A stretch of DNA of 39,300 bases from a virus, in UHGV virus genome UHGV-0123126. One strand, given 5' to 3'. A program made the translations under genes and the position numbers. A model generated the notes under the pieces. It was given only the letters and a program-made list of their open reading frames with translations. It had not been told where the DNA came from and made no database searches. Below are positions 3,605-13,700 of the stretch, piece by piece. Position 1 is the stretch's first letter. Each line of letters starts with the position of its first letter.

Positions 3605-5944
3605 TTACTCTTCTACTGACTCGGTGGGGTTGTCTTTTGCTCTTCGGTCGTCGATTGCCTGCAAAGCCGCAATGATTTCAGCCAGTGGCTTCTCCCGATA
3701 CATCTCGACGATCTGCGATTTGGTGTATTTCTTGTCACCAATTTCAACTCGCCCGCTGGCGTTCTTTGGCAGGTATCCTTCTTCCAGCATGTACTCGACG
3801 AGCGATTCGATAACGTCGAGGCCACGAGTAGGATCGAAGTAGAATTTCCAGGTGCATTTGCCATACGGTGGTGCAACTTTGTTTTTGATGCATTCTGCGC
3901 CTACGTCCTGGCCGATCTTCTCTTTACCATCCTTCATCACCGATGCACCAAGACGGATACGTACAGAAGCGTAGAACTTCGGTGAATCTCCACCTGGCGA
4001 CGTAGTAGGGTCGCCAAACATTACACCGATTTTTGTGCGAACCTGATTCAAGAAGATGATGCAGGCGTTGTATTTGCGTGCCCACAAAGCCAGAGTAGGG
4101 AAGTTCGCACTCGTCGCACGAGCCAGTGCCGTATTGTCGTTCATGTTTAGCTGATCTTTGTCTTTGGCTGTGCCTTCAGCCATCTTTTCGAACTTCTCGG
4201 CTTTGGAGTTCGGAACCATAGACGCAAGAGAGTCAGCCACGATACAGATAGGTGCTGATTCGGGGATAAGCTCTTCATCACGAACCAATTTAAGTATTGT
4301 GCCGATCAACTCTACAGAGTCTTCGAAGGTATCTGGCTGCTTGTATACCCACTGACCGTCATCCTCATCTGCGTTCAGGCCATTGGCTACAGCCAGGCCA
4401 ACGTCAAAACTGTTTTCATGATCGAGGAATACCGCCAGACCATCTTGTTTTTGAGCGGAGATCATCGCTGCTGTTGCAAGGAATGTGTTGTGGCTGATAA
4501 TCCCGTTAGACCAGAAAGAGTGTGTTTCCGGCATCGCTACGTCGAACGTTGGTGCTTCACCTTCCTCAATAGCCACGACTTCGTCGTAGAACAAGTTAGA
4601 GCCAATTACCGCTGCCAGTTGTGCAAACAGATGCTCGTTAAAACGATTCTTTCTGCCAATGAAGGAGACATAGATTTCTCGCAGTTTGTCTATTCCGACA
4701 CGATCGCCGCGGCCAATAACGTGGTCTACCAGAGCGTAGTCTTCACGGGTGGTCTTGGTGAGCGACTCGTAGAGTGATTTCACTAAGCCGCTGATGTGCG
4801 GAACATAGCCTGAGTAAGTGCGGTCAAAACCAATGTCCCGTTTGGTTGCCACTGATAAACGTGCCGGAGATTCGAAACCAATCGTTGACAGAAAAAGGTC
4901 GTAATTAGAGCCACTGAATGACAGCCGGTAATATGTATTTTCATAACCCGCGACGTGTTTTTCAGAGATAGTTGACGTAATCCCCAGATTCAGGAGCATG
5001 AGGCGAATTTGCTGTAGCAGCAGCCCACTCGCGCTCACAACCTCAATGCAGCGACCATCATTGACGTGGCATTCCAGCTCAAAGTAGCCGCGAAGGAATG
5101 CAATTTGAGCCTCGCTATTGGCGCGACGCACACTCAACGGAACCTGCTTGCCAGCAGCTTTCTCATACTCCAGACCATATTCTTTAAAAAGCAGCGAACG
5201 CACCTCTTTGCTAAACAGCACATGGTCTTCCGAGCCGTTATGTTTTCTCGTAACTGGCATCTTGTCTGATACCAGCGAAATGAGGCGGTAGTACTCATCC
5301 TTGATGAAAGGATCTGTGTTAGAAAAATTCACTGAATTTTCAGAGGCCACGTATCCGTCAGCAATTAAATAGCCCATCAGTTTTGCGATATTGGCATCCA
5401 GGTGCTGATCGCCGAATTGATGTGTGCCAACCATTGAAGGAATCGTGTCGCCTACACTGATTTTTTCAGCATGTCGCCAGACGACATTACCTAAGTCGTC
5501 AACCACACGGATTGGGTGACGGAACGTAGCCTCGATATAACCGCCTGATGCCAGCTTAATACGCTTGAATTTGCGACGGTTGTTCCATGTCAGGTGTGAG
5601 GTCTTCTCTATCACGCCATTTTCATTGATGAGTCCAACGTTATGCTCTACATCGCGAGTAGTGCATGTCGCTTTGTACCCTTCAATCTCAAACAACTCTT
5701 TCACTGTTACCATTCCACGCTCCGTCAGCAGCATGGTGTCTGCGGTAACACATTTCCCCGCGCTTGGTGGCCCGAATACTTCTACGATACGACCACATGG
5801 GAAACCGCCATCGTAACGACCGGAAATAGCTTTGTTTAACGGAGGAAAGCCTGTGTCAATCCAATGAGTTACTTTCTGAATTTCGTCGTTGCTACCGATT
5901 TTCTTTTTCAGAGCAAGTGCCAGTGCGGATTTTCCTTTTGCCAT
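3605..5944 (-). CDS. recA: RecA-family recombinase (RecA/UvsX-like) interrupted by an intein; 779-aa precursor, about 357-aa mature protein
   Basis: N-extein ends GRIVEVFGPPSAGK (Walker A); C-extein resumes TFLATAAM... and contains NQVRTKIGVMFGDPTTSPGGDSPKFYASVRIRLG, closely matching the E. coli RecA core recalled from memory. Confidence 0.9.
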   Translation of the reverse strand: MAKGKSALALALKKKIGSNDEIQKVTHWIDTGFPPLNKAISGRYDGGFPCGRIVEVFGPPSAGKCVTADTMLLTERGMVTVKELFEIEGYKATCTTRDVEHNVGLINENGVIEKTSHLTWNNRRKFKRIKLASGGYIEATFRHPIRVVDDLGNVVWRHAEKISVGDTIPSMVGTHQFGDQHLDANIAKLMGYLIADGYVASENSVNFSNTDPFIKDEYYRLISLVSDKMPVTRKHNGSEDHVLFSKEVRSLLFKEYGLEYEKAAGKQVPLSVRRANSEAQIAFLRGYFELECHVNDGRCIEVVSASGLLLQQIRLMLLNLGITSTISEKHVAGYENTYYRLSFSGSNYDLFLSTIGFESPARLSVATKRDIGFDRTYSGYVPHISGLVKSLYESLTKTTREDYALVDHVIGRGDRVGIDKLREIYVSFIGRKNRFNEHLFAQLAAVIGSNLFYDEVVAIEEGEAPTFDVAMPETHSFWSNGIISHNTFLATAAMISAQKQDGLAVFLDHENSFDVGLAVANGLNADEDDGQWVYKQPDTFEDSVELIGTILKLVRDEELIPESAPICIVADSLASMVPNSKAEKFEKMAEGTAKDKDQLNMNDNTALARATSANFPTLALWARKYNACIIFLNQVRTKIGVMFGDPTTSPGGDSPKFYASVRIRLGASVMKDGKEKIGQDVGAECIKNKVAPPYGKCTWKFYFDPTRGLDVIESLVEYMLEEGYLPKNASGRVEIGDKKYTKSQIVEMYREKPLAEIIAALQAIDDRRAKDNPTESVEE
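4487..5752 (-). other. Intein (422 aa) with LAGLIDADG homing-endonuclease domain, inserted in the RecA P-loop
   Basis: Begins with Cys right after GPPSAGK, ends ...SHN followed by Thr; internal LMGYLIADGYV motif. Confidence 0.85.
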
Positions 5945-5946
5945 GA

Positions 5947-6213
5947 TCAGGCTCCTTTTGTTTCGTTGATTCGTTTTAAAGCGGCGGATTCGTCTAATAC
6001 AATCGCATCGTGATTAAGGAGTCTGGATACACGAGCGAGGATTTTTACGACCTGCTCGCTGACTAATCCAAACTCGCGATCTGTCGCTTTCATTCCGGCA
6101 GCGCCTAGAATTGACGGCAGTGCGATGACAGCGTACTCACCGTGATAAAAGACAATCTCTTTTGCCAGTTGGGTGGGGGTGGTTGTAGCGCCATTAATAA
6201 TCGATTTAAGCAT
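5947..6213 (-). CDS. Hypothetical protein (about 88 aa), translationally coupled to the recombinase
   Basis: ORF between flap endonuclease and recombinase; ATG at 6211..6213 overlaps the endonuclease stop (TAATG). Confidence 0.45.
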   Translation of the reverse strand: MLKSIINGATTTPTQLAKEIVFYHGEYAVIALPSILGAAGMKATDREFGLVSEQVVKILARVSRLLNHDAIVLDESAALKRINETKGA

Positions 6214-7208
6214 TAGCAATACCTTTCGAATGGAAGAACAAACACTTCAAGGTCTTCAAGGAACGAACGGAAATTCAGCTCGTAGCACAGTTGCTCGAAT
6301 GCTTTCACGTCACGATTGCCTTTGATTGTTTCGATTTCGGTAGGCGGAAACTTCGTCTCAATCAGGTTCATTAGCGTGATGTTTCTCTTGAACGCTTCGA
6401 GCATTCGACAGCCTGTTTTCTCGTTGAAGGCATTCTTCGCTAGTTTGTTGAAGGCGGTCTTATGACGCCCTTTATTAACCACGATTGAGCCGTCGTTGAT
6501 GCCGCGTACCATCGTTGCGACACTTCCCCATTCATGCAGCAGCTCTTTCGCACCGCCAGCACCAATGCCTCCAACACCGCTAATGTTGTCCGAGTTATCG
6601 CCTTGTAATGCTTTTGCTTCCAAAAATGCGCGAGGCGTGGCGAATCCTGTCAGCTCCGCAAATTGCTCAAAATTAACCTGCTTGTTTTTGGCGTCTTCAC
6701 GCAGGCTTACCCAGCTTACGTTTTCACGAACTAACTGAAGCCAGTCGCTATCGCCTGTTAACAGATAGATGTGTTCAACGGTTGGCTGCGGTGCCATGCG
6801 GGATACCAGCAGCCCGGCCAGATCATCCGCTTCTGCATCTTTTGCAATGAGTTGGGTAACTCCAAGCGCGGTCATCATTTTGAGGATGTATGGCTTCTGG
6901 ATAGCAAAGCCTTCCTTCATCTTTTTCATATCAGGATCGTCGTCGCGATTTGCTTTGTAGTCCGGGTAAAAGTCGCGACGCTTGTCACTAAATCCATCCC
7001 AAAGAATCATAGGTCGGGCATGGAGGATGGAGGCATAACGACGGACGTTCTTAACAAAGCCGAAAGCAGCCTGTACTTCCATTTCGCCGTTGTGCAATTT
7101 GTCAGATTGTTGGTGGTAATAACCCAGGCTATTGCCATCTACGAAGAGATAATTCACCGGTACATTCCTTCCAAAAAGTAAGGCGTCCGTAGACGCCTTA
7201 CTGGTCAC
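6213..7208 (-). CDS. 5'-3' exonuclease / flap endonuclease (FEN family); true start may be the GTG at 7155..7157
   Basis: LFVDGNSL near the N-terminus and GDNSDNISGVGGIG H3TH motif. A terminator-like hairpin at 7171..7200 lies inside the track ORF's first codons. Confidence 0.8.
   Translation of the reverse strand: MTSKASTDALLFGRNVPVNYLFVDGNSLGYYHQQSDKLHNGEMEVQAAFGFVKNVRRYASILHARPMILWDGFSDKRRDFYPDYKANRDDDPDMKKMKEGFAIQKPYILKMMTALGVTQLIAKDAEADDLAGLLVSRMAPQPTVEHIYLLTGDSDWLQLVRENVSWVSLREDAKNKQVNFEQFAELTGFATPRAFLEAKALQGDNSDNISGVGGIGAGGAKELLHEWGSVATMVRGINDGSIVVNKGRHKTAFNKLAKNAFNEKTGCRMLEAFKRNITLMNLIETKFPPTEIETIKGNRDVKAFEQLCYELNFRSFLEDLEVFVLPFERYC
7171..7200 (-). terminator. Terminator-like hairpin (TAAGGCGTC-CGTA-GACGCCTTA) after the SSB-like gene
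   Basis: Same stem sequence family as the hairpins at 2443 and 3580; followed on the minus strand by CTTTTTGG. Confidence 0.45.
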
Positions 7209-8795: not shown

Positions 8796-9003
8796 TCTAA
8801 TAGGTTCCTACTTATAAAATCTGTATCAATTATATCAAACAGAGAACGGGTTTATGGCGTCATGTCAACTTTGTTCAGGGGAAAAATATTGAGATCACCG
8901 AAGATAATTAGTTGTCTTATTTTGGTAAGCTGTGCTGACCATCTTTAGGTCACATACATGAGATGGATGGGGGTGTGGCATGAACGGATGAAATTCAGTC
9001 GCC

Positions 9004-9034
9004 GTTGACAGATGTCAACACTGTGAATAGAATA
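9004..9034 (+). promoter_or_regulatory. Sigma70-type promoter (TTGACA, 17-bp spacer, TAGAAT) with a 16-bp palindrome GTTGACAGATGTCAAC over the -35
   Basis: TTGACA at 9005..9010, TAGAAT at 9028..9033; GGAGG SD and ATG at 9051 follow. Confidence 0.5.
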
Positions 9035-9050
9035 CTATTATCGGAGGCGA

Positions 9051-9275
9051 ATGAAGCAACATCCGAATAAGCATATTCAAGCAGCCATTGACTATGCATT
9101 AAGTAAAGGCTGGATCTGGGTAGCAGCTGGTGGTGCTGCACATTGTTTTTGCAGACTGCGATGCGGTAATCCAGAAGGTGAACACAAAACTCACCAAATG
9201 AGCGTATGGTCGACTCCGGGTAATCCCGAAAACCATGCCAAACAGATCAAACGAATGGTTGATCGTTGTAAATGA
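9051..9275 (+). CDS. Hypothetical Cys/His-rich small protein (74 aa)
   Basis: Strong SD (GGAGG) and promoter upstream; C..C..C and several His residues. Confidence 0.55.
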   Translation: MKQHPNKHIQAAIDYALSKGWIWVAAGGAAHCFCRLRCGNPEGEHKTHQMSVWSTPGNPENHAKQIKRMVDRCK

Positions 9276-9279
9276 TTTC

Positions 9280-9299
9280 AAGGCGGCATTAGCCGCCTT
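9280..9299 (+). terminator. Intercistronic hairpin (AAGGCGGC-ATTA-GCCGCCTT), possible attenuator
   Basis: Perfect 8-bp stem with a short T-run, between the two plus-strand genes. Confidence 0.3.
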
Positions 9300-9335
9300 T
9301 TGCAGAAACTGTCCAACTATCTTCAAAGGAAAACT

Positions 9336-9899
9336 ATGGCGCTTTATAACTTCACTCTGACGCTCTCAGGCGTATCGTATGAGACGGAAGGACTGGAAGA
9401 CGCGCTGTACCAAAACGGCTGTGACGATGCGCTAATTTGCGCATATGGAAACTCCGTCTATGTAGAATTTGACCGCGAAGCACAATCACTTGATGCAGCT
9501 ATCGCATCTGCGGTCGACAATATTGAATCAGCCGGTATCGGTGCAATTGTTGAATCCGTCGACTCGGCTCTTGTGGGCTTAAGCGATATCGCGGAACTGA
9601 CAGACCTGTCTCGCCAGGCAGTGGCGTTGCTCAAAGACGGTAAGCGCGGAAGCGGCGACTTCCCTTGCCCTGTACAACGCATAAAAGGCCAGTCTCCTCT
9701 CTGGGATTGGGCTGATGTGGCTGAATGGCTCATGAATAACGGACGACTTAAAGAGGGCGATCAAATTGTCCAAAATGCCCGAACTTTGAGTAAATGGAAT
9801 CTGGCGCTTCGAAACAGCGTCTCGAAAGATTTCAACGAAATAGAGCAAATTGCGGAGAAACTGATTAAACGCCGCAAAGATATTGCGAAATGCGCATAA
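9336..9899 (+). CDS. Hypothetical protein with a possible C-terminal helix-turn-helix (track ORF begins at an upstream TTG, 9300)
   Basis: ATG at 9336 preceded by AAGGA; HTH-like segment LSDIAELTDLSRQAVALL; followed by hairpin GCCCGCC-AATT-GGCGGGC at 9903..9922. Confidence 0.55.
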   Translation: MALYNFTLTLSGVSYETEGLEDALYQNGCDDALICAYGNSVYVEFDREAQSLDAAIASAVDNIESAGIGAIVESVDSALVGLSDIAELTDLSRQAVALLKDGKRGSGDFPCPVQRIKGQSPLWDWADVAEWLMNNGRLKEGDQIVQNARTLSKWNLALRNSVSKDFNEIEQIAEKLIKRRKDIAKCA

Positions 9900-10015
9900 T
9901 GATGCCCGCCAATTGGCGGGCATCTGTTCTCTGTAAAGGTGTCTGGCATCGTCTGGTTCGTTAACGTTTACTAAACCAATGGTGACAAAAATTAGTTATC
10001 TTTGAAAAATAAAGG

Positions 10016-10044
10016 TTGCATGAAAAGAAGGGGTATGCGTTAAT
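10016..10044 (+). promoter_or_regulatory. cspA-like promoter (TTGCAT, 17-bp spacer, GTTAAT) with about 180-nt 5' UTR
   Basis: Hexamers at 10016..10021 and 10039..10044; long leader before the csp start mirrors the E. coli cspA arrangement (from memory). Confidence 0.4.
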
Positions 10045-10228
10045 AGCATCGTTGGTTTGCAAGACAGACCTTATGTAAGCAGTTTTAGTAAAGCAGTCTC
10101 AGTTCAGTGTTATCTTCTGATTTCCCTTCTTCGTGAGTCTCCTCCTTAAGTGCCTAAGTAAGTCCCAATCTATACAGATCAAATTCTCGCCGCACTATGT
10201 GGCTCACAAAATTAAGAAGGTAATATCT

Positions 10229-10444
10229 ATGTCTAATAAAATGACTGGTTTAGTAAAATGGTTTAACTCTGATAAAGGCTTTGGCTTTATTTCTCCTGCT
10301 GATGGCAGTAAAGATGTTTTTGTACATTTTTCGGCAATTCAGAGTAATAATTTCCGCACTTTGGAAGAAGGCCAGCAGGTCGAATTCTCTATCGAGAATG
10401 GGGCTAAAGGCCCAGCAGCAGCAAATGTCGTTGCTCTAAGCTGA
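10229..10444 (+). CDS. Cold-shock protein, CspA family (CspB/G/I-like), 71 aa
   Basis: [38 protein letters not shown]... carries the RNP1/RNP2 motifs of CspA-family proteins; the track ORF is extended upstream. Confidence 0.9.
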
Positions 10445-10720
10445 TTCAACGCTGATGATCCTCATTTCTACAATAACGAAGACGGTGTAAGCCTGAGTGG
10501 ATAGATTTGTAGGATTGTACAAGTTGAATAAATTAGCATGGTAAGGCCATGCTAATTAAATCGACACAACGGCCAGTTTATTCCATAAAAGTGAATTGCC
10601 CATTGTGGCGAAATGCGGGGTTGCCGCATGAATAGTCAAAGGCAGAAGCTAACTGCCGGCATGGCAAAACAAAGTGCGTAAGAGGAGTGACTTCCTCAAC
10701 AAGCGCCATAATTCTTTATA

Positions 10721-10749
10721 AACCCGCCAACAGGCGGGTTTTCTTTATT
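10721..10749. terminator. Hairpin AACCCGCC-AACA-GGCGGGTT plus T-rich tail, between csp and the polymerase 3' end
   Basis: Perfect 8-bp stem followed on plus by TTCTTTATT; directly abuts the polymerase stop. Confidence 0.45.
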
Positions 10750-13700
10750 ACTTATTTATTGTCTCCGCGATATCAGCCAGAATGGCCTCCAGTCGCTCTC
10801 CTTCTTCCGGTCGGAAGTACAGGATATTCGGGTTAAATCCGTAGAAGACGGTTGCATCAAGCTCTGGGAAGTACTCCTTACGACCAATCAGATCTGATGG
10901 TTTACTCTTATTGTTAAATAGTGCGGTTGAACGACTACCACACGTCAAAATGTAGGTTGGTCGTACAAGATTAATTTCTTCCCGCATAAAGTCTGTGAAC
11001 TGGCCTATCTCGTCTTTGGTATAGTCTTTCTCTTTGTCCTTAACCTTCTTACAAACACCCGTGACATAAAGATCGCCCATGCGCAGATCTCCAACTGTCA
11101 GTAGTTTTGCCTTAAAGTCGTCGTATCCGTTCTCCATGAAGTAGCCGGTACGAGCGTCATTGCCGTTCGCATTGTCCAGAATGATCATGATTTTGGGTTT
11201 AATACCAATAGTCGGGCGTATCAACTCCTCACCCAAGCCCATTTCAGCCGCCATACGTGTCATGAGTACGTTGATTTCGGCAGAACGCTTAGGATTCATT
11301 TCGAACGGACGTGATGCTTTAACAGCGTCAATGATGAGATTGCCCATCAGCTCAGCCTGGTCGCGCAGTCGTTCAGGATCAGTTGCTGGCAGACTGCCTG
11401 GCTCAATTGACGCAAAAGCCCCTACTTTATGAAGCGACTCGCGTACACGACTGTTACATGCACGCTTCTCGACCGCTTCATCGAATTGTGCCACTGACTC
11501 GAATTTGCCACCAACTTTCTCACGCGCACGCATAATTGCCTGACAACCATTTTCAGAACAGCCTTTCACAGCAGAGAATGGCGCATACAGTGCCTGACTG
11601 CCGTCTTCGAGTGTGCGGATCTCAATTCGGTTAGATGACACATTAACGTCTGGTGGCAATACGCGAATGCCATAGGTCAGCGCATCCTTCACCAGCCCCT
11701 GATGCTTATCCTCGCCCAGAATGGTGAGCGCAGCTGCGAAGAACTCAGCAGGGTAGTGCGTCTTTAGCCACATAGACTGATAACTGATTAAAGAATAAGA
11801 AACGGAGTGTGATTTATTGAACTGATAGGCTCCGTTTTTCTCAAATGCGGTCCAGATCTCCTTCGCTTTCATCTCTGATAGCCCTGGATGTGACGCTGTA
11901 ACGCGTACTGCGTTTATAGGTAGTTTTGCGCCGTGCTCAAGTGCCTCTTCGACAGTTTTCAGAGTTCCGTCTTCGCATTTAAAATGTTCCGCACGGTGAA
12001 TGCGCTGTGTAGTGCCATCTTCCAGCTCAACGTCTATCCAGCCAGCTTGAGCCTGAACGATGAACTTCTCGCCCATGCTCTTCATTTTTTCCATGTTCTT
12101 CTTACCGATTGCGGAACGCACAGCGTCAGCTTCAGCCATTGTGAAGCCGGCAAGCAATCGAGTCGCGTTCATCGTCTGTTCCTGATAGAGAATCACGCCA
12201 TTTGTTTCCGCGGTAAGTTCATCAAGAACGGGGTGTAATGATTCCGGCGTCATAAAGCCTTTGGCGACAGAAACATAGTCATCCAACATGCCTGATTGAA
12301 TTGGCCCCGGCCGGAAGAGCGCAGTTGTAGCGACGACCGTTTTAAAGCTCATTGGCTCAATTCCACCACCTAAATCTTTAAGCAGCTTGCGCATTGGGCC
12401 TGATTCAAGCTGGAAAACACCTTGAGTGTACCCAGCAGCAAAACCATCCAGCACCTTGCGATCTTCAAGAGAAATGGCATCAAGATTGATATCTTCACCT
12501 GTGTTCTCTTTTATGTAGCGTTTTGCACTATCGAGCAAATCGAGAGTTGCCAGGCCAAGCACGTCCAGCTTAATTAGGCCCATAGCCTCGCAGTAACGCT
12601 TGTCAAATGCGATACAACGCGCGTCACCACGGCGCTCAACCGGTGTACGTTCTGTCAGAGGAACACCTGCTACGATCATCCCTGCCGCATGTCTACCAAA
12701 GCCACGCATAAGGCTTTGTAACTTGCAGGCTGCATTGAATGCATCAGGATATTTTGTTGCGTATTTGTCGAGACTTGCCAGTTGTTCGCGCAGTTCTTCC
12801 AATGGAAGGCTATCATCCTCAGCGTTCTTCAGTTCTTTTGATACCGCCATATCTGCGGACTCCACACCATAAATACGAGCGGTGTCACGTAGTGCAGAGG
12901 CTGCGCCCAGGTAGGTGAAGTTCGGAATGCCTGCAACGTAATCTTCGCCGTAGCGTTCATTCAGATACTCGATCACCTCATGGCGACGTGCCTGGCTGAA
13001 GTCCAAATCCGCATCTGGCAAGTCGAGACGCTCAGGGTTGATGAAACGTTCAAACAGAAGACCGTGACGGATAGGGTCGACGTTGGTTATGCCTATGCAC
13101 CATGCCACCAAAGAGCCAGCGGAGGAACCACGACCAGGCCCGACAGGAATGCCAGTTTCACGGCTGTGATTCATCAGATCGCGTACCATCAGGAAGTAAC
13201 CACAAAATCCCAGGCGAGTAAGCGTGTCCATTTCGTACTTAAGTCGCTCAACATAAACCCTGTTCTCAGAAGCCGGTGGTGTGTATCCAAACTCTTTTGT
13301 GGTAAGACGTTTACGCAGCCCTGCAACAGCCAGTTTCATCAGCGTTGCAGGTTCGTCGTCTGCCATCTTGGGCAGTGCTGGTGGCAATTCATGCCAGCGC
13401 CATGTACAGGCTTCGATAATGGAGTCCTGCGTTGTTGAGGCCATTGCAGCTGTTACCGGCACATCCATGCGAACGGAGAAGGCTTTAAGCGCCTCAAGGA
13501 GATGGCGGCGACCATTGACGGCGTTATCTCGCTGGTGGGGTATACGCAGACGATGCGGCTGGTCGATTTTTATGTTGTTCGTAACCATGTGCGCAATGTC
13601 TTTAATGTCTGCATCGTCGATCGATTCGTAATAAGCGGGATAGAACGCTACTGGCTCTATTTTCAGTGCGCTGGCTACTTTCATCGCTCGGACGTTAATC

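Follow-up and report, generated by a model that had tools for sequence, protein, structure and literature searches.

Why does a phage-plasmid carry a cold-shock gene equipped with its own promoter and a long leader of the cspA type? The question is posed by viral genome UHGV-0123126, a 39,300-nucleotide (nt) stretch of DNA (the window) in which a small plus-strand gene, here termed csp, encodes a protein of the CspA family. The best answer, to which we assign a probability of roughly 70%, is that csp constitutes a self-contained, functional cold-shock cassette: an accessory (‘moron’) gene lodged in the variable cargo slot that the uvsY-like recombination gene and dnaE flank in an SSU5-like phage-plasmid.

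Phage-borne csp genes with cspA-type leaders are already well known (Qin, the lambdoid phages, PHROG 729). The present case adds to these csp-bearing temperate elements the SSU5-type phage-plasmids, which occur in about 4% of complete Escherichia coli genomes and, among Klebsiella plasmids, number in the hundreds; no described csp gene on an SSU5-like phage-plasmid was found in the literature. It also raises a testable question: do such elements aid the survival of enteric bacteria, or plasmid maintenance in them, outside the warm gut?

By its sequence, the csp product is a member of the CspA family, with predicted RNA and single-stranded DNA (ssDNA) binding and chaperone or antitermination activity. 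Residues 5–69 match the Pfam cold-shock domain (PF00313; 115 bits against a cut-off of 27, E = 1.4e-33), residues 1–70 match the solved structure of E. coli CspA (PDB 2l15; E = 1.4e-32), and the protein also matches PHROG 729, ‘cold shock protein’. The translation contains RNP1 (KGFGFI, residues 16–21), RNP2 (VFVHF, residues 30–34), and W11. The initial annotation likened this 71-amino-acid (aa) protein to E. coli CspB, CspG, and CspI, each a single cold-shock domain of about 70 aa with both RNP motifs, and the likeness holds: over the first 69 residues, identity to the K-12 proteins is 84% for CspB, 83% for CspG, 81% for CspI, and 72.5% for CspA.

RefSeq names the protein ‘CspG’ on more than 100 plasmids (a PGAP label). 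The NCBIfam CspG equivalog model, NF007378, is passed marginally (146.6 bits against a cut-off of 144, or 2.6 bits above), and the NCBIfam CspA subfamily model is passed as well (140.2 bits against 130). Orthology to CspG was considered and rejected: csp stands apart from K-12 cspG and cspB in a neighbor-joining tree; its leader and that of cspG are 60.6% identical; and the cspH-cspG-ymcF context is missing, the neighbors of csp being a hicB-like gene and dnaE.

The control region shares several features with those of E. coli cspB, cspG, and cspI: the UP-like block; the TTGC-type −35; the extended −10, TGcGTTAAT; a 5′ cold-box hairpin; and an early coding block, AAAATGACTGGTTTAGTAAAATGG. The promoter blocks line up base for base with the K-12 cspA, cspB, cspG, and cspI promoters, ATGCGTTAAT is the same in cspB, cspG, and cspI, and the AAAATAA core of the UP-like block aligns in all four K-12 genes and in all phage-plasmid copies. 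The cold box, upstream-box hairpin, Shine-Dalgarno sequence, and downstream-box region can likewise be aligned to those of the four K-12 genes; every cis-element known to confer cold induction on cspA, cspB, and cspG is in place. Position 10016, where the feature first noted begins, is the first base of the −35 hexamer TTGCAT; the TG of the extended −10 lies at 10036–37 and its hexamer at 10039–44. The promoter was called by aligning it with the K-12 csp promoters, since a generic consensus scan did not flag the site, whose −35 matches consensus at just three of six positions. Alignment to the cspA +1 places the inferred start site at 10051/10052, and thereby gives a leader of 177–178 nt, in keeping with the cspA-like promoter and leader of about 180 nt proposed from first reading.

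The leader is recognizable as a family. Rfam RF01766, the cspA thermoregulator, matches 10051–10469 with 185.7 bits (gathering score 78, E = 9.5e-51) over model positions 1–428, and only the model's 3′ terminator hairpin is absent. The match covers the full leader and coding region, and includes the cold-box hairpin and the long-range helix that joins leader and coding sequence (CDS). Unlike the family consensus, several of the consensus pairs are non-canonical here, and no terminator hairpin stands directly after the stop codon. A cold box, looked for specifically, is present as the hairpin at 10054–10070 and agrees with that of cspG at 10 of 11 positions. The long-range helix does not vary among 46 aligned sequences, so covariation argues neither for it nor against it. 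The ‘upstream-box’ hairpin of csp is longer than its E. coli counterpart (GCCGCACUAUGUGGC here versus GCCGAAAGGC). The csp gene differs from E. coli cspB, cspG, and cspI also in leader length (145–161 nt in the latter), in leader sequence (55–61% identity), in genomic context, and in falling outside the cspB/cspG clade.

How such leaders work is known in outline from E. coli. At 37 °C, the cspA, cspB, and cspG leaders are targets of Rho binding (Delaleau et al. 2024, cited through the review PMC12360218). Upon cooling, the leaders adopt ‘closed’ folds, with the Rho utilization (Rut) site masked and the ribosome-binding site (RBS) exposed, and accumulating Csp proteins return them to the earlier fold (PMC12360218). 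In K-12, Term-seq maps a bicyclomycin-sensitive (Rho-dependent) 3′ end 80 nt upstream of the cspB open reading frame (ORF), after ...TTCTTTGAGTCTCTCC (PMC7815308 supplement). The block TTCTTCGTGAGTCTCCTCC, at about 10130–10148 in the window, is the homolog of the cspB-leader block in which this end was mapped.

Conservation also extends into the CDS. The first 13 csp codons (ATGTCTAATAAAATGACTGGTTTAGTAAAATGGTTT, 10229–10267, plus strand) are nearly invariant at synonymous sites among the 46 csp genes, which come from many genera, and 26 contiguous early nt are invariant outright, synonymous sites included. This invariance arises because the stretch holds both the 3′ strand of the long-range helix (10243–10264, codons 5–12) and the downstream-box region. 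By sequence comparison, then, constraint at the RNA level (leader pairing and downstream box) overlies coding constraint in these codons.

The location of csp on a phage element is secure. The window is an SSU5-like phage-plasmid: 861 base pairs (bp) around csp match Escherichia phage Cyrano (pLF82) at 99.9% identity, and the same 861 bp are 100% identical in dozens of E. coli plasmids of about 100–115 kilobases (kb). With 63 PLSDB records at 99% identity or more, all with unchanged neighbors, and Cyrano besides, the earlier worries of assembly artifact, host contamination, or a gene absent from the actual replicon are ruled out. The whole window is collinear with p108_MLI108-3, with genes for RecA-like, exonuclease, gp32-like, uvsY-like, DnaE, CobS/CobT-like, integrase, ligase, primase, helicase, and tail proteins.

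Across SSU5-group phage-plasmids, the interval from the uvsY-like gene to dnaE (8796–10747) serves as a cargo hotspot. Escherichia phage PhiR41_1 has nothing there; elsewhere the interval contains hicAB-like genes and a 141-aa ORF in SSU5, which itself has no csp; contains other small genes in Klebsiella phage ST13-OXA48phi12.3; contains a lipoprotein gene and others in Citrobacter; and contains csp in Cyrano, pJN2-26, and Citrobacter plasmids. Presence and absence among collinear relatives make csp an accessory (‘moron’) gene. With its own promoter (10016–44) and terminators on both sides (9901–24 and 10720–41), it lies outside the phage operons.

Surveys of sequenced genomes give the same picture on a larger scale. 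The uvsY-like gene, used as a backbone marker, occurs in 219 of 5,426 complete E. coli genomes, on plasmids only (103 copies at 99% or more, 109 at 90–95%), and csp at 99% or more occurs in 90 of those 219. The gene tracks the Cyrano-like sublineage, as seen from 90 csp genomes against 103 backbone copies at that threshold. In PLSDB, the backbone is present in 785 plasmids (Klebsiella 317, Escherichia 219, Enterobacter 91, Yersinia 63, Salmonella 49), about 150 of which carry the csp cassette; none of the Salmonella or Yersinia backbone plasmids does.

Copies also occur outside phage-plasmids. The same type of cassette is found on an Escherichia albertii F-type plasmid (NZ_CP030786.2, 4001–4438), with fimbrial genes as neighbors, and in Escherichia sp. 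E1V33 on a contig (1001–1511) the rest of which is dissimilar to the window. Similarity to csp copies on other replicons starts at 10003–10006, and that to the E1V33 copy extends to 10514. Because similarity of the non-phage-plasmid copies spans just 10003–10514, promoter, leader, CDS, and proximal 3′ region are taken to move together as a unit. The E. albertii promoter and leader are about 82% identical to the window, and its protein is more CspA-like (75% aa identity), which suggests, from the sequence, that this cassette is a mosaic.

Where did csp come from? The initial annotation took it for a recent capture from a host, that is, of one of the E. coli chromosomal paralogs cspB, cspG, or cspI. 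The 81–84% protein identity and an identical −10 region speak for this origin, as does a synonymous distance (dS) to K-12 cspB of 0.75, below that to the Klebsiella orthologs, a figure that probably reflects shared AT-rich codon use. Yet the 5,426 genomes contain no chromosomal match above about 76% (the best being cspB at 75–76% and cspG at 73%), and plasmids account for 100 of the places matched. Orthologs occupy the same slot in Klebsiella phage pJN2-26, Klebsiella plasmid pSZP4-9-2-109k, and two Citrobacter phage-plasmids, either directly before dnaE or before dnaE and one small ORF. They are 81–85% identical in nucleotide and 90–96% in aa sequence, with dS about 1.2 or saturated; the backbones of the same relatives have diverged equally (dnaE 80–83%, dS 1.2–2.1; uvsY-like gene 75–77%). 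It follows that csp has co-diverged with its backbone under strong purifying selection, the ratio of nonsynonymous to synonymous distance (dN/dS) to the Citrobacter orthologs being about 0.03 (dN 0.02–0.04, with dS at least 1.2). The leader, in turn, is 55–61% identical to the K-12 leaders versus 64–70% to chromosomal or megaplasmid csp leaders of Citrobacter, Pantoea, and Duffyella. The neighbor-joining tree, built on leader and CDS combined, groups the phage-plasmid copies in a separate clade (72% bootstrap), which lies amid csp genes from the chromosomes of Citrobacter, Enterobacter, Pantoea, and Yersinia and has the E1V33 copy nested inside it. Membership of the cspA family stands, and kinship with E. 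coli cspA, cspB, cspG, or cspI close enough for a recent transfer does not. Because of the chromosomal search, the co-divergence, and the separate clade, the capture is judged from sequence to be old, with csp a long-standing accessory gene of the phage-plasmid lineage and E. coli not the evident donor; recent capture has the lowest standing of all the origins and roles weighed here, close to nil. That csp is instead a neutral passenger, decaying or silent on the plasmid, is hardly more credible. Its absence from many relatives would fit such a status, but no copy examined has a damaged ORF, promoter, leader, or terminator, RNA-level constraints are kept, the sequence is 100% conserved in dozens of plasmids, and the dN/dS of about 0.03 is that of a gene under selection.

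Selection on csp might serve the phage rather than the lysogen. The protein would then be an RNA chaperone, antiterminator, or ssDNA binder for replication, recombination, or late transcription in the cold. The gene does lie within a replication and recombination module (gp32-like single-stranded DNA-binding protein, uvsY-like, RecA-like, exonuclease, and DnaE); CspA-family proteins are known antiterminators (by NCBIfam names); the lambdoid cspB sits between Q and the lysis genes; and csp has stayed with the backbone across genera. However, its promoter is of host type, it is convergent to the replication genes and enclosed by two terminators, and its slot is a cargo hotspot that elsewhere holds unrelated genes. 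Moreover, SSU5, PhiR41_1, and all of the Salmonella and Yersinia relatives persist without csp, SSU5 and PhiR41_1 having been deposited as phage genomes. A role for the phage is therefore unlikely, if the strongest of the competitors. Very improbable, in turn, is that the RNA matters more than the protein, with a multicopy cold-box leader titrating host Csp proteins or Rho and so reshaping the host cold-shock response. Conservation of the cold-box hairpin and the Rut-like tract would agree with a decoy. Jiang, Fang, and Inouye are said to have found in 1996 that overproducing the cspA 5′ untranslated region (UTR) derepresses cold-shock genes. Plasmid copy number is 5.5 per cell (PMC9928086), but five extra copies are a modest addition to four or five chromosomal leaders, and the strong purifying selection on the CDS means that the protein matters.

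The self-contained cassette remains the preferred reading, under which csp is probably, by analogy with its E. coli relatives, a cold-inducible, autonomously regulated RNA-chaperone accessory gene. On the same analogy we infer cold induction, Rho attenuation, autoregulation, and any benefit to host or plasmid. A strong σ70 promoter with its UP-like element and extended −10 would drive transcription from about 10051. At 37 °C, the fold of the leader (about 178 nt) would expose the C-rich Rho-loading tract and hide the RBS, such that most transcripts would stop early or decay and little protein would be made. Upon temperature downshift, the leader and the first 40 or so nt of the CDS would refold, blocking Rho access, stabilizing the mRNA, and making translation efficient. 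The 71-aa protein would bind single-stranded RNA through RNP1 and RNP2 and melt cold-stabilized structures, acting as RNA chaperone and antiterminator. Accumulating Csp proteins would finally bind the leader, presumably in the cold-box region, and shut expression off. Because csp possesses both a promoter and a terminator of its own and converges on the replication genes, its expression from the plasmid prophage would be independent of the phage lytic programme, and the lysogen would gain a cold-inducible dose of Csp.

Several points weigh against this account. The cold box matches that of cspA at just 7 of 11 positions. The RF01766 terminator is replaced here by a 3′ UTR of about 300 nt that precedes the actual terminator. 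About half of the related E. coli phage-plasmids have no csp, and E. coli already possesses four cold-inducible paralogs, so that a gain in fitness from a fifth is not self-evident. The LF82 transcriptome table has no entry for csp, since the Cyrano record omits it. Finally, partition-function folding at 10, 15, 25, 37, and 42 °C left the accessibility of the Shine-Dalgarno sequence and AUG of the csp mRNA unchanged; the K-12 cspA control was likewise unchanged, showing the method to be blind to the switch even there, and these calculations were kept out of the evidence.

Which known genes does csp most resemble as a whole? One set comprises cspB, cspI, and cspF of K-12 Qin and phages Tritos, HannyBb, 2H10, and mEp460, which share with it the arrangement of an independently transcribed csp on a temperate phage. 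In LF82 lysogens, Tritos cspB and cspI are expressed 59- and 93-fold above prophage background (PMC9928086). The phage-borne cspB genes have in common with csp the CDS followed by a 3′ region of about 300 nt, with the structured element described below and the terminator. Unlike the lambdoid genes, csp resides on an SSU5-group plasmid prophage, between recombination and replication genes and not in a Q/lysis cassette; unlike phage cspB, it has a leader of the general Enterobacterales type.

The second set comprises cspA-like genes on chromosomes or megaplasmids of other Enterobacterales (Citrobacter, where the gene adjoins thiH; Enterobacter; Pantoea; Yersinia, with cspA1/A2; and others), which share the motif AGCAGUUUUAGUAAAGCAGU, leaders of 170–182 nt, and the extended upstream-box hairpin. 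Among the matches listed, these are 77–80% identical to csp across promoter, leader, and CDS. The leader signature AGCAGTTTTAGTAAAGCAGT occurs beside csp genes in at least 120 Enterobacterales species, again with leaders of 170–182 nt, and signature-bearing genes are 77–80% identical to 10016–10444 (among the matches listed, one genome per species). Unlike csp, the cspA-like genes have no 3′ element, lie off phage elements, and stand at a distance of at least about 0.24. None is an identifiable donor: in the search among at least 120 species, the nearest chromosomal genes were all in the 77–80% range, and none stood out.

The sole part of the locus that may be worth further work is its 3′ UTR, which is shared with prophage cspB and offers a cheap lead on cold-shock mRNA turnover. 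The region 10445–10760 folds with z = −5.1 relative to shuffled sequences. Its distal part is about 82% identical to DNA situated downstream from cspB (by 166–300 nt), both in K-12 Qin and in the phages Tritos and HannyBb; in the two phages, the homolog of the structured element lies between cspB and a holin gene, and in K-12 it lies at about 1,641,060–1,641,172 of NC_000913.3 (5061–5173 of the extracted locus, minus strand). The element spans about 110 nt (10602–10712). Compared over ten sequences, which represent only three independent lineages, its four-hairpin fold is 99.7% paired (300 cells, one broken), with double compensatory changes at five pairs and wobble-compatible single changes at eight; slid controls were 20–57% paired. 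Several universally conserved G·U pairs fit the csp-sense strand alone.

The element keeps company with csp. In 109 of the 120 viral contigs that contain it, a csp ORF lies 197–208 nt upstream. It is present once each in 1,715 of the 5,426 complete E. coli genomes and is never annotated. A covariance-model search placed it beside no chromosomal csp in the loci of at least 120 species, nor beside K-12 cspA, cspG, or cspI, the one hit being of 18 bits (E = 0.11). Against Rfam 15 at a permissive threshold, it gave only terminator-like hits far below thresholds. The short phage-plasmid variants, pJN2-26 and a Citrobacter plasmid, do without it but retain the terminator; indeed, the terminator hairpin at 10720–41 is kept in all phage-plasmid variants.

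Tentatively, then, csp and this RNA, with its terminator at 10720–41, may form a phage-specific cassette, the element being an undescribed functional RNA found with phage-borne csp only; the odds fall somewhat short of even. Two functions seem plausible: a 3′ stability module, governing clearance of the csp mRNA by PNPase, RNase R, or other cold-shock RNases; or a small RNA that originates in the 3′ UTR. Other candidates were tried and rejected. ARAGORN found no tRNA-like structure. A small ORF is ruled out by a 1-nt insertion or deletion between the phage-plasmid and lambdoid copies, which shifts the frame and leaves no conserved peptide. Pairing of the 5′ leader with the 3′ element, as in mRNA circularization, gave duplex energies no better than shuffled sequences in two of three lineages. 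Nor is 10445–10747 a decayed copy of the 141-aa ORF found beside dnaE in SSU5 and Klebsiella: tblastn gave no match.

Published K-12 Term-seq data bear on the homologous region. The homolog of the terminator hairpin coincides with a 3′ end mapped to the other strand (PMC7815308 supplement). At 37 °C, no minus-strand 3′ end was found at the element's terminator, cold-shock conditions not having been sampled (PMC7815308). A very abundant 3′ end maps about 115 nt after the cspB stop codon, at NC_000913.3 1,641,224–1,641,226 on the minus strand (PMC7815308). As a side observation outside the window, this abundant end falls just after a strong Shine-Dalgarno sequence and ATG that would open an 11-codon ORF (MKQWLAYLAKS).

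Features of the csp locus and its immediate surroundings (window coordinates)
Feature	Position	Strand	Remarks
hicA-like gene	9051–9275	+	Cyrano annotation; not part of the csp unit
hicB/AlpA-like gene	9336–9899	+	Cyrano annotation; not part of the csp unit
Intrinsic terminator	9901–9924	+	Terminator scan; separates csp from the hicA/hicB-like genes
A/T-rich UP-like block GAAAAATAAAGG	10004–10015	+	Directly 5′ of the −35; also left edge of the mobile cassette
Predicted σ70 promoter, cspA type	10016–10044	+	−35 TTGCAT 10016–21; 17-nt spacer; extended −10 TGcGTTAAT 10036–44
5′ UTR, cspA-thermoregulator type, about 178 nt	10051–10228	+	Rfam RF01766; alignment of 46 leaders; RNAalifold
Cold-box hairpin UGCAAGACAGA	10054–10070	+	GGUUUG-CAAGA-CAGACC
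Long-range helix	10077–10098 with 10243–10264	+	Predicted on 46 sequences (RNAalifold); 17 of 17 pairs kept
C-rich, G-poor Rut-like tract	about 10111–10200	+	C versus G, 18 versus 8 per 60 nt
‘Upstream-box’ hairpin	10189–10203	+	Covaries among 46 homologs (AU:18, GU:17, GC:6)
Shine-Dalgarno sequence GAAGG	10216–10220	+	Within the leader
csp CDS	10229–10444	+	ATG, 71 codons, TGA; 71 aa, single cold-shock domain (ORF list)
Proximal 3′ UTR	10445–10599	+	First 70 nt or so kept in all copies of the csp lineage; hairpin at about 10531–10556
Structured 3′-UTR element, about 110 nt	10602–10712	+	Closing stem 10602–10610 with 10704–10712; four hairpins
Element hairpins	10613–29, 10635–60, 10664–77, 10682–97	+	Within the 9-bp closing stem
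Intrinsic terminator AAACCCGCCAACAGGCGGGTTT, then T-tract	10720–10750	+	Hairpin 10720–41; terminator scan; between convergent csp and dnaE; right edge of the cassette
DnaE-like polymerase gene, phage-plasmid backbone	10748–14266	−	Convergent with csp; divergence yardstick

Several database labels can be corrected. The gene is unannotated in the Cyrano/pLF82 record (OV696614.1, locus 6330–6545), and is consequently absent from the published list of LF82 prophage morons. In Klebsiella phage pJN2-26 (MZ779062.1), the csp ortholog (6221–6436) is labeled ‘putative portal protein’. The third correction concerns the name ‘CspG’, bestowed by a marginal score. A 41-aa ‘hypothetical protein’ drawn over the csp leader of pJN2-26 (6008–6133) is spurious, as the window copy has an in-frame stop.

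The surroundings of csp differ in one respect from first impressions, which made it a lone plus-strand gene among minus-strand replication genes. The strand is correct; the island, however, contains not one gene but three: hicA-like, hicB/AlpA-like, and csp. The first two are homologs of SSU5_055 and SSU5_054 (58% and 68% aa identity). Their labels conflict: Cyrano has HicA toxin and HicB antitoxin, the SSU5 homolog of the larger gene is an ‘AlpA-like regulator’, and in PHROGs the larger gene is an ‘excisionase and transcriptional regulator’ (phrog_2620). Pfam and NCBIfam searches gave no match for either. The pair is well expressed in LF82 lysogens, at 14- and 30-fold above background.

Two further observations concern the phage-plasmid backbone. 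In Klebsiella plasmid pSZP4-9-2-109k, the 141-aa ORF is separated from the annotated dnaE by a NUMOD4/HNH endonuclease gene and a further stretch of about 1.2 kb with no annotated gene. In the window, the RecA-like gene (3606–5945, minus strand) is 2,340 nt long versus 1,074–1,077 nt in SSU5 and pJN2-26; it is labeled ‘LAGLIDADG family homing endonuclease’ by PGAP and ‘RecA’ in Cyrano. Its greater length suggests, from the sequence, an intein or homing-endonuclease insertion.

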